A DNA stretch of 4,215 bases, taken from the sequence record NC_001890.1; one strand, given 5' to 3'. Of this stretch, positions 1,343-4,111 are shown one piece after another. Within the stretch, counting starts at the first letter, position 1; each line of letters starts with the position of its first letter. Under the pieces are notes generated by a model. It made no database searches and was not told the DNA's origin. It saw nothing but the letters and a program-made list of their open reading frames with translations. The translations under genes were made by a program, and so were the position numbers. Source of the DNA: Escherichia phage Qbeta.

Positions 1343-1744
1343 ATGGCTAAATTACAAGCTATCACTTTAAGTGGTATTGGGAAGAACGGTGACGTTACTC
1401 TGAACCTCAACCCGCGTGGGGTAAATCCCACCAACGGTGTTGCCGCGCTTTCAGAAGCGGGTGCAGTTCCTGCATTGGAGAAGCGTGTTACAATTTCTGT
1501 ATCACAGCCTTCTCGCAATCGTAAGAACTACAAAGTTCAGGTAAAGATCCAGAACCCAACCTCTTGCACTGCAAGCGGTACTTGTGACCCTTCAGTTACT
1601 CGTTCGGCTTATGCTGACGTGACGTTCTCGTTCACGCAGTACAGCACTGATGAGGAACGTGCACTCGTACGAACAGAGCTTAAAGCCCTGTTGGCGGATC
1701 CAATGCTTATCGATGCTATCGATAACTTGAATCCGGCGTACTGA
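1343..1744 (+). CDS. cp: Major coat protein, 133 aa, ending at a leaky UGA
   Basis: ORF MAKLQAITLSGIGKNGDVTLNLNPRGVNPTNGV...QYSTDEERALVRTELKALLADPMLIDAIDNLNPAY. It is near-identical in length to the Qbeta coat protein as I recall it (MAKLETVTLGNIGKDGKQTLVLNPRGVNPTNGV...NPAY), with several recognisable blocks shared. It is the second gene in the canonical order and terminates at TGA 1742-1744 followed by A. Confidence 0.97.
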   Translation: MAKLQAITLSGIGKNGDVTLNLNPRGVNPTNGVAALSEAGAVPALEKRVTISVSQPSRNRKNYKVQVKIQNPTSCTASGTCDPSVTRSAYADVTFSFTQYSTDEERALVRTELKALLADPMLIDAIDNLNPAY

Positions 1745-2332
1745 ACTGCACTTCTTGGTGATGGCTCAGGGCCTAGCCCTGTACCGGGTCCTAATCCGGA
1801 CCCGCCACTGGAGCCGCCGCCAGGGACAGGTAGTTATACCTGTCCTTTCCGTATATGGGATCTTTCCAGCATTTATGAAGCTGCGAATAGTTCCCACTCG
1901 TGGGATATCTATAACGCTGTCGAACTCAGTCCTCGCAAATTTGACGTTACCCTTGATGACCTCTTGGGTAACACAGATTGGCGCGATTGGGACGGCAGAC
2001 TTAGGTATACCACGTTTCGCGGTAGCCGAGGTAACGGATACATTGACCTTGACGCCACTTCGTTGATGCAGGATGAATATCTTACATCTTCGAAGTATTT
2101 AGTGCGTGAGGGGAAACGTCCCGGTGCTTTCGGTTCAATTGAACGGTTTGTTTATCTTAAATCGATAAACGCATACTGTTCTCTTAGCGATATTACGGCC
2201 TACCACTCCGACGGAGTGGTAGTTGGCTTTTGGCGCGACCCGTCAAGCGGGGGAGCCATACCATTCGACTTTAGCGAGTTTGATTCGAACAAATGTCCGA
2301 TCCAAGCCGTTATTGTCGTTCCTCGTCTTTAG
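1343..2332 (+). CDS. A1: A1 read-through protein (coat plus C-terminal extension, about 329 aa), made by occasional suppression of the coat UGA at 1742-1744; a minor capsid protein needed for infectivity
   Basis: Codon-by-codon reading shows the frame stays open from the coat UGA (1742-1744) to TAG at 2330-2332, followed by an in-frame TAA at 2333-2335 (tandem stops). The 122-aa ORF 1964..2332 in the track is in the same frame (1343 and 1964 are both congruent to 2 mod 3) and is the distal part of this extension. The extension reads TALLGDGSGPSPVPGPNPDPPLEPPPGTGSYTCPF...GNGYIDLDAT...GAFGSIERFVYLKSINAYCSLSDITAYHSDGVVVGFWRDPSSGGAIPFDF...KCPIQAVIVVPRL, which matches the Qbeta A1 extension as I recall it. 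A 329-aa total equals the Qbeta A1 length. Confidence 0.92.
1742..1744 (+). other. Leaky UGA termination codon of the coat gene (programmed read-through site; context UAC-UGA-A)
   Basis: TGA at 1742-1744 followed by A at 1745 and 195 further sense codons in frame. In Qbeta the coat UGA is read as Trp at a low percentage to give A1 (established knowledge). Confidence 0.88.
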
Positions 2333-2346: not shown

Positions 2347-2368
2347 CTGCATGTCAAAGACACTGCAG
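2347..2368 (+). promoter_or_regulatory. Putative translational operator hairpin spanning the replicase start codon (coat-protein binding site that represses replicase translation, and likely packaging signal)
   Basis: CTGCAUGUC-AAA-GACACUGCAG folds by eye as a 5-bp lower stem (2347-2351 with 2364-2368), a single unpaired C2363, a 4-bp upper stem (2352-2355 with 2359-2362) and a 3-nt AAA loop, with the replicase AUG (2351-2353) inside the 5' arm. The Qbeta operator (AUGCAUGUCUAAGACAGCAU as I recall it) is also a 3-nt-loop hairpin with one bulge containing the replicase AUG. Confidence 0.75.
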
Positions 2369-4111
2369 TCGCGTAAGTCGCTTAGCGGAAAACTCCGCCG
2401 CGCTGCGAACACAAGAATCGTGGTTGAAGGTAACCTCGCACTGTCTATCGCGAATGATCTATTATCCGCGCTAGATGTAGAACCGTTTAATTCGGAAGAA
2501 GACTGTATAAGTCGTTCACCGAAATTCGGCATCTCACCAGATCAATTTAGGAATTCCTATCTTCGTGCTGAGATAATGTCGAAGTACGATTCTTTTAGCC
2601 TAGGTATTAATACCGAAGCCGTAGCATGGGAAAAGTTCCTAGCTGCGGAGGCTGAGTGTGCTAAGACGAATCTGAGACTCTATAGGCCTAACTACAATGA
2701 GGATTTCAATTTCTCATTGGGTGAGACATGTATTCACATGGCTCGCCGAAAAATAGTTAAGCTATTAGGAGATTCAGTTCCGTTTGAGGCTGTGTTGCGA
2801 CATTGCCGGTTTTCCGGCGGTGCCACAACAACGAATAGCCGTCTATACGGCCATCCGTCCTTCAAGTTTGCTCTTGCGCAAGAGTGTACCCCACGGGCTG
2901 TTCCATATGTGCAAGCTTTAAAGGCCTGTACAAACATGGACCTTGGTATTACCAAGGTTAGCCCTTTCAATAAAGCAGTTACTGTACCAAAGAACAGTAA
3001 AACTGATCGCTGCATCGCTATCGAGCCAGGCTGGAATATGTTTTTCCAGTTGGGCATTGGTGGCGTAATTCGCGAAAAGTTGCACTTGTGGAATATCGAC
3101 CTGAATGATCAGACGATTAACCAGGTGCGCGCATATTCAGGCAGCTGTAGCAATGAACTTGCTACAGTGGATCTCTCGAGCGCGAGTGATACTATTTCGC
3201 TTGCGCTCGTTGAGCTCCTGCTACCCCCTGCGTGGTTTAAAGTCCTTACGGACCTTAGGTCACGAAGGGGTATGTTGCCAGACGGTAGAATCATTACCTA
3301 TGAGAAAATTTCCTCAATGGGTAACGGTTTCACCTTCGAGCTCGAGTCGCTTATATTTGCAGCTCTTGCTCGGTCTTTATGCGAGTTACTGAACTTACAA
3401 CCGTCGAGTGTCACGGTCTATGGCGATGATATTATATTGCCATCAGACGCGTGCAGCTCGTTGATTGAAGTTTTCTCCTACGTAGGTTTTAGAACCAACG
3501 AGAAGAAGACCTTTTTCGACGGGCCGTTCCGAGAGTCGTGCGGAAAGCACTACTTTATGGGCGTTGACGTCACACCTTTCTACATACGCCACCGTATAGT
3601 GAGTCCCTCTGATCTCATACTGGTTTTGAACCAGATGTATCGTTGGGCCACGATTGATGGCGTATGGGATCCTAGGGTATATCCTGTATACACCAAGTAC
3701 AGACGTCTGCTGCCGGATATTCTCCGCAGAAATGTCGTACCTGATGGATATGGTGATGGTGCCCTCGTCGGATCTGTCCTTACCAGTCCTTTCGCAGAAA
3801 ATCGCGGTTGGGTTCGGCGTGTGCCGATGATAATTGACAAGAAGAAAGACCGAGTGCGTGACGAGCGTGGTTCATATCTCTATGAACTATGGTCGTTACA
3901 GCAGCTCGAATGTGACAGTGAGTTCCCGTTCAACGGGTCGCTGGTTGTTGGTACCAACGATGGAGTTTGCACTTACCGACACCGAGAGCGGGTTTCTACC
4001 GCTATCAGTGATTCGGTTGGCGCATACGACATCGTATGGATACCGTGCAGTAGTCGTGTCCTGGCTCCCTACGGGGACTTCCGGAGGCACGAAGGTTCTA
4101 TCCTAAAATAG
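2351..4111 (+). CDS. rep: RNA-dependent RNA polymerase, replicase beta subunit, 586 aa
   Basis: Longest ORF, last in the canonical order, ATG 2351 to TAG 4109-4111. It contains the catalytic YGDD motif (TVYGDDIILPSD; YGDD encoded at 3419-3430) and the other palm-domain blocks recalled from the Qbeta replicase (MSKT...LRRAANTRI, CRFSGGATTTN, PFNKAVTVPKNSKTDRCIAIEPGWNMFFQLGIGG, YEKISSMGNGFTFELESLIFA, FRESCGKHY, CSSRVLAPYG). The length is close to the Qbeta beta subunit (about 589 aa). Confidence 0.97.
   Translation: MSKTLQSRKSLSGKLRRAANTRIVVEGNLALSIANDLLSALDVEPFNSEEDCISRSPKFGISPDQFRNSYLRAEIMSKYDSFSLGINTEAVAWEKFLAAEAECAKTNLRLYRPNYNEDFNFSLGETCIHMARRKIVKLLGDSVPFEAVLRHCRFSGGATTTNSRLYGHPSFKFALAQECTPRAVPYVQALKACTNMDLGITKVSPFNKAVTVPKNSKTDRCIAIEPGWNMFFQLGIGGVIREKLHLWNIDLNDQTINQVRAYSGSCSNELATVDLSSASDTISLALVELLLPPAWFKVLTDLRSRRGMLPDGRIITYEKISSMGNGFTFELESLIFAALARSLCELLNLQPSSVTVYGDDIILPSDACSSLIEVFSYVGFRTNEKKTFFDGPFRESCGKHYFMGVDVTPFYIRHRIVSPSDLILVLNQMYRWATIDGVWDPRVYPVYTKYRRLLPDILRRNVVPDGYGDGALVGSVLTSPFAENRGWVRRVPMIIDKKKDRVRDERGSYLYELWSLQQLECDSEFPFNGSLVVGTNDGVCTYRHRERVSTAISDSVGAYDIVWIPCSSRVLAPYGDFRRHEGSILK

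Follow-up and report, generated by a model that had tools for sequence, protein, structure and literature searches.

The coat gene of the RNA phage MX1 ends in a leaky UGA, and the roughly 30 codons behind it lead from the coat protein into the read-through domain of A1. An earlier note on this DNA had taken these codons as one flexible Pro/Gly/Ser-rich tether, and the question raised by the locus is whether the whole stretch is a free linker of this kind or is built from parts with different properties. The second answer is probably the right one: the connector appears to be a composite of a short hinge, a stiff polyproline spacer and the start of the read-through domain, and not a uniform flexible linker. 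As such it is an ordinary, already known feature, and it has little discovery value because UniProt, Pfam and PDB already cover the protein, where its domain begins and the polyproline helix.

The window encodes phage MX1 and its read-through protein A1

The window, that is, the whole stretch of 4215 nt that was analysed, is the complete genome of the RNA phage MX1 (Qubevirus). By exact-sequence lookup, the coat, A2 and replicase proteins were found to be exact matches to those of MX1 (AAC14698-AAC14701), and among the phage-collection records M11 comes closest, at 88.8% nucleotide identity. The genes are arranged as A2 (56-1321), coat (1343-1744) with a read-through frame to 2332, and replicase (2351-4111), which is the allolevivirus organisation of A2, coat/A1 and replicase within ~4.2 kb and without a separate lysis gene. 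The coat ORF ends in a single UGA at 1742-1744, followed by ~195 in-frame codons without a stop up to 2332, and the A1 frame (1343-2332) reads ...NPAY*TALLGDGSGPSPVPGPNPDPPLEPPPGTGSYTCPF.... With Trp placed at the UGA, the translated A1 is identical to the deposited UniProt entry O64307 (A1_BPMX1). Pfam assigned Levi_coat to A1 residues 2-133 (241.8 bits, gathering cut-off 25) and Read-through (PF16814) to residues 147-328 (433.6 bits, gathering cut-off 27, E = 8e-131). The proposal that the segment connects the fold of the coat protein with the read-through domain is supported.

For Qbeta, suppression of the coat UGA (a few per cent) and the presence of A1 in virions are known from Weiner and Weber in 1971 and Hofstetter in 1974, as cited in PMC13114773. 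Immediately 3′ of the UGA, the base is A throughout the 12 Qbeta-like genomes as well as in two distant metagenomic lineages, L021 and L022 (UGA ACN), and G in all six SP/FI/NL95-like genomes (UGA GCN), so that the immediate 3′ context of the leaky stop is kept within clades and not genus-wide.

Composition and layout of the connector

The 31-residue peptide TALLGDGSGPSPVPGPNPDPPLEPPPGTGSY is encoded at 1745-1837, directly 3′ of the UGA, and 1838-1840 is the next codon, T166; the span of 1745-1840 given in the earlier note was therefore right to within one codon. The peptide contains 10 Pro, 6 Gly and 3 Ser (61% of its 31 residues), compared with 5.5% Pro in the three phage proteins, and no other 31-residue window of the MX1 proteome holds more than five Pro. 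The binomial probability of this composition, multiplied by the window count, is ~1e-3, and the G+C content is 62% against 48.5% for the genome. The low-complexity Pro/Gly/Ser-rich stretch noticed behind the leaky UGA is therefore real and far above chance. A minus-strand ORF of 43 aa that overlaps the region (1766-1897) was dismissed as mechanical because leviviruses are not known to translate the minus strand.

The following features were delineated around the stop codon and along the connector.

1742-1744, plus strand: leaky UGA stop of the coat gene, Trp134 in A1 (the deposited A1 has W)
1745-1756, plus strand: T135-L138 (TALL), conserved hydrophobic start, [TA]-x-L-[LIM], with L137 invariant in 24 sequences
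1757-1771, plus strand: G139-G143 (GDGSG), putative Gly/Ser hinge, variable in sequence and with indels across lineages, pLDDT <50
1772-1825, plus strand: P144-G161 (PSPVPGPNPDPPLEPPPG), proline run corresponding by homology (Pfam, PDB alignment) to the polyproline II helix of Qbeta; by pN/pS, P144-N151 evolves freely and P152-G161 is conserved
1826-1849, plus strand: T162-F169 (TGSYTCPF), nearly invariant, opening the globular fold by conservation and a predicted strand at 163-166

In the proposed arrangement, the conserved hydrophobic stub TALL comes after Trp134, which would be inserted at the suppressed UGA, and the five-residue Gly/Ser hinge GDGSG probably gives rotational freedom. The 18-residue run P144-G161 most likely forms a polyproline II (PPII) helix, as in Qbeta; its N-terminal half would act as a stiff, sequence-tolerant spacer between the capsid surface and the domain, the globular read-through domain likely holds its C-terminal half (PDPPLEPPPG), and TGSY would open the first strand of that domain.

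Conservation of the connector across lineages

The A1 alignment comprised 17 reference genomes, the two distant metagenomic lineages (L021 and L022-L027), which were recovered via their read-through domains, and a few partial sequences. The wider homologue search returned four proteins and a scan of viral contigs added three loci; A1 homologues are few in protein searches because gene callers stop at the UGA. The read-through domains of L021 and L022-L027, which belong to uncultured alloleviviruses, share 36-51% identity with the globular part of MX1. L022 is a near-complete genome of 4175 nt; L022-L027 come from Logan/ENA contigs (e.g. SRR33038103) and L021 from SRR18186849.

A common layout was observed directly in the alignment: a hydrophobic stub with the consensus W-[TA]-x-L-[LIM], a Gly/Ser patch, a proline run, and then the nearly invariant motif PP-x-G-[TS]-G-x-[YF]-x-CPF. 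The distance from the stop to the Tyr stays within 28-34 residues across 20 lineages, with a single partial sequence at 36, and the Gly/Pro balance varies by clade, as the comparison of linker length and composition proposed earlier brings out. L021 and L022 have 4 prolines, at the low end, and MX1 and M11 have the most, 10-11, and Gly climbs as Pro drops; the connectors of L021 and L022 are Gly-rich, not Pro-rich (SGGGGDSGGS; 4 prolines).

Position by position, L137, P159 and G163 are invariant in the 24 sequences, and a conservation of 90% or more is reached at G141, G143, P146, P148, P152, P158, G161, T162 and Y165. Within TGSYTCPF, G163, C167, P168 and F169 are invariant. The codons of the invariant L137 differ among lineages (CUU, CUC and UUA), and the constraint therefore acts on the protein. 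Among the 12 Qbeta-like genomes, pN/pS values, which rest on 9-15 codons per sub-segment and are indicative only, were 0.43 for stub and hinge (W134-G143), 1.06 for P144-N151, which is also an indel hotspot, and 0.39 for P152-Y165; the globular domain gave 0.23. The pattern taken as diagnostic of a disordered linker, namely composition and length kept with no positional conservation, was thus found in P144-N151 alone and not over the whole connector.

The N-terminus of the Qbeta A1 read-through domain begins at the same place after the coat UGA and has the same four-part layout ending in GTGxYTCPF, the same connector length of 31 residues, and a PDPP-x-[DE]-PPPGTG stretch in common with MX1. 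That the sequence nevertheless differs from Qbeta, as had been remarked, is evident from the identities: 19 of 32 aligned positions in the connector (59%, with two one-residue indels), whereas the globular domain reaches 74% and the coat protein 84%. The connector of MX1 has 10 prolines and that of Qbeta 8; the Gly/Ser patch is shorter in MX1 (GDGSG), likewise in M11, than in Qbeta (AGGGSGSK), and the MX1 proline run, which includes a Gly, sets in two to three residues earlier, the runs of both MX1 and M11 being longer. M11, whose A1 (AAC06251) is the closest sequenced relative, is identical to MX1 at 27 of 31 connector residues, with the same length and the same PSP-x-PGP pattern; the four substitutions (D140V, V147G, N151D and L156P) give M11 a total of 11 prolines.

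Structural evidence on a probably stiff proline run

The boundary of the read-through domain lies inside the proposed linker, with the PF16814 model starting at A1 residue 147, and the 3RLC/3RLK chain in PDB aligns from query residue 10 (= P144) with E = 7.5e-96. Both entries reportedly derive from the crystallography of the Qbeta read-through domain by Rumnieks and Tars in 2011. They were also the top Foldseek matches, with 176 (3RLC) and 183 (3RLK) modelled residues of 192 deposited, the Foldseek length being the number of residues present in the coordinates. By arithmetic on these counts, and not from the coordinates, we infer that the construct was Met plus Qbeta A139-A329 and that the models start at P147 in 3RLK and at P154 in 3RLC; the Qbeta equivalent of the hinge, A139-K146, would then have been in the crystallised construct without being modelled. 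On these model starts, the Qbeta proline run would therefore be ordered. Qbeta P147-G161 is exactly 15 residues long and aligns with MX1 P146-G161, and reviews call the Qbeta run an 'unusually long' polyproline II helix of 15 residues (PMC6526423, PMC8067240). Since one crystal form models seven more residues than the other, the N-terminal half of this helix may be only conditionally ordered. The MX1 run is identical to that of Qbeta at 10 of 18 positions over P144-G161 and differs at the other eight; a PPII conformation in MX1 would follow from this homology, and G149 could break the helix.

Structure prediction, which had been proposed as a check on flexibility, was run with AF2 on a 24-sequence alignment, and both models are weak (mean pLDDT 56.6 and 70.8). 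In the full-length A1 model the coat fold itself had pLDDT <50 and a low-confidence helix covered 131-138, so the low pLDDT of the linker in this model is uninformative and was discarded. In the extension-only model (mean pLDDT 70.8, pTM 0.71), residues 134-154 of A1 were below 50, residues 154-163 averaged 59, and the following segments averaged 89 (164-173), 96 (174-183) and 95 (184-193), with a strand at 163-166. Confidence starts to rise where the shorter crystal model is inferred to begin, at P154. AF2 thus did not place the segment in a folded domain at high confidence, and it gave no confident conformation for 134-154; on this point the crystal data are the stronger evidence. DSSP has no label class for PPII.

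Read-through proteins of plant viruses offer a parallel for a stiff spacer. Luteovirids and benyviruses, like MX1, make a minor capsid protein by stop-codon read-through with a Pro-rich tract right after the stop, but they are translated in eukaryotic hosts and share neither sequence nor fold homology with MX1. The Pro-rich N-termini of the read-through domains of luteovirids, benyviruses and alloleviviruses have been called 'relatively rigid spacers', and the plant-virus tracts a hinge or relatively rigid spacer that exposes the domain on the virion (PMC5127029).

How much of the connector is flexible

The main alternative on the protein side is that the whole segment of ~31 residues is an intrinsically disordered, free tether in which only composition and length matter. 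Its low-complexity composition would suit such a tether, as would the AF2 pLDDT <50 for 134-154, the indels and the pN/pS of ~1 in P144-N151, and the way in which distant lineages trade Pro for Gly at similar length (L022 has 4 Pro and 9 Gly). Cryo-EM reconstructions of Qbeta moreover show no trace of the A1 extension, which suggests a flexible attachment (PMC8067240). However, in the Qbeta crystal structure the proline run reportedly forms an ordered PPII helix of 15 residues, with which the modelled-residue counts concur, the Pfam boundary falls at 147, L137, P159 and G163 are invariant while P152-Y165 has a pN/pS of 0.39, and proline runs are stiff, not flexible (PMC5127029). We therefore consider a fully disordered tether unlikely.

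What stands of the flexible tether is its Gly/Ser part, which is variable with indels and lies in the stretch of low pLDDT; its extension over all ~30 codons is not supported, in view of the proline run reported as ordered in the Qbeta crystals, the start of PF16814 at 147 and the invariant positions. The real hinge most likely falls within the ~nine residues TALLGDGSG (1745-1771), with GDGSG as the most likely flexible element.

RNA structure over the connector

The nucleotides of the connector can also fold, and two structures were predicted in the Qbeta-like genomes.

1757-1821, plus strand: outer RNA stem that pairs Gly codons GGUGAUGG (1757-1764) with Pro codons CCGCCGCC (1814-1821) and encloses smaller hairpins; consensus fold of 12 Qbeta-like genomes
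1822-1847, plus strand: RNA hairpin on the GTGSYTCP codons, with a perfect 9-bp core (1824-1832/1837-1845) and the loop GUUA; fold and inverted repeat

In the outer stem, the hinge Gly codons (GGU GAU GG) can base-pair with those for Pro in the PPP motif (CCG CCG CC), and an inverted repeat at 1778-1791/1798-1811 is an example of a hairpin inside it. Seven of its 8 pairs are invariant, and the remaining one is a mismatch at the same position in MX1 and M11 (A.C and U.C); the GGUGGUGG/CCGCCGCC stem, third positions included, is invariant in 10 of the 12 Qbeta-like genomes. A pairing between the Gly tract and the Pro tract was present in 11 of 11 folded lineages with shifted registers, and the spacing from the UGA to the stem varies from ~12 to 24 nt among lineages. 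For the hairpin on the GTGSYTCP codons, 97% of cells were paired in 13 Qbeta-like sequences, with no two-sided changes. An equivalent hairpin is found in other registers in the SP/FI/NL95-like group, L021 and L022 (i+j = 37, 41-42 and 43), so that pairing potential on the shared motif is kept among clades and single base pairs are not homologous. Upstream of the UGA, the codons of the coat C-terminal helix (LIDAIDN) contain an inverted repeat of 8 bp without mismatches, TTATCGAT/ATCGATAA, whose arms enclose a 3-nt loop (1707-1725).

Compared with synonymous recodings, the RNA of 1745-1849 has z = -4.3 in MX1, with none of 300 recodings as stable, and the same region in five other lineages gave z = -2.4 to -3.8. 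Its stability is in the top 4-14% of same-length windows per genome. The connector region is among the most strongly structured in the MX1 genome, and the whole genome is more structured than the proteins need, control windows averaging z = -1.1 to -1.95. Codon choice therefore seems to be shaped by RNA folding here as in much of these genomes. A single fixed-structure covariation test on all lineages was rejected, as the clades do not share one register of the hairpin, and clade-wise tests of the stem and the hairpin showed weak or no covariation. The Rfam scan returned no family in the region, its lone hit being a chance miRNA match of 20 bits, where the gathering score is 66.5. The replicase S-site and M-site were ruled out, since the SP record has them at 1331-1443 and at 2629-2956 and neither falls in the corresponding region. 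On this comparative evidence, the connector nucleotides are apparently also under RNA-structure selection, like much of the genome, with weak covariation support.

This raises the possibility that the composition is driven by the RNA, the Gly and Pro codon tracts being kept for a genomic stem that would serve in folding, in packaging or in the control of read-through, with the peptide as a tolerated by-product. The z-scores in MX1 and the five other lineages, the invariance of the stem down to third positions and the pairing of the two tracts in every folded lineage would all agree with this, but neighbouring G-rich and C-rich tracts pair in any folding program, and against the structured background of the whole genome the region is no outlier. 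The near absence of covariation, the stem mismatch in MX1 and M11, the variable distance to the UGA and the lack of an Rfam match also weigh against it, as do the varying codons of L137 and the PPxGTGxYxCPF conservation, which runs into a domain of solved fold. An origin of the composition in the RNA is accordingly judged very improbable. It is also improbable that the connector is dual-coded, in which case the complementarity of GGN and CCN codons would partly sustain its composition and stem-loops 12-24 nt past the UGA might tune read-through or capsid-RNA contacts. The dual-coding idea is modelled on the luteovirus C-rich read-through element that encodes a proline hinge. In luteoviruses, C-rich repeats encoding prolines are themselves required for read-through; no comparable requirement is known for alloleviviruses. 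The composite of hinge, spacer and domain start remains the preferred reading, with a putative spacer role for the proline run.

Peptide display and engineering of Qbeta-type particles

The connector had also been called the classical site of peptide display on Qbeta-type particles. Mosaic-VLP work on the 'A1 extension' was reportedly carried out by Kozlovska in 1996 and Vasiljeva in 1998; a literature search for such constructs returned nothing relevant. In live-phage display on Qbeta, peptides are instead fused to the 3′-terminal part of the gene for A1 (nt 2271-2333); the C-terminus of A1 is dispensable and its N-terminus reportedly important (PMC4231119). Later platform papers likewise place the insertion at the A1 C-terminus. 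Judged on the live-phage literature, the connector as classical display site is thus not borne out.

For the engineering of Qbeta-type particles, this means that the ~30 codons should not be exchanged at will as if they were a flexible linker, because few of the residues look tolerant, the folded domain likely holds the C-terminal prolines and the RNA structure appears to be selected. The part that tolerates change looks like only ~5-17 residues, either GDGSG alone or T135 through N151. In terms of design, the 20-lineage comparison indicates that connector length is conserved and that the balance of glycine and proline is what shifts between clades.

MX1-like sequences in metagenomes

Coat and A2 sequences within 90% of MX1/M11 were found on several JGI/IMG metagenomic contigs of 3384-5307 nt. 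At 5307 nt, one of these contigs is longer than all known allolevivirus genomes, and it may have been misassembled or represent a concatemer. The presence of MX1/M11-like coat and A2 on these contigs indicates that MX1-like phages occur in the environment beyond the two cultured isolates.
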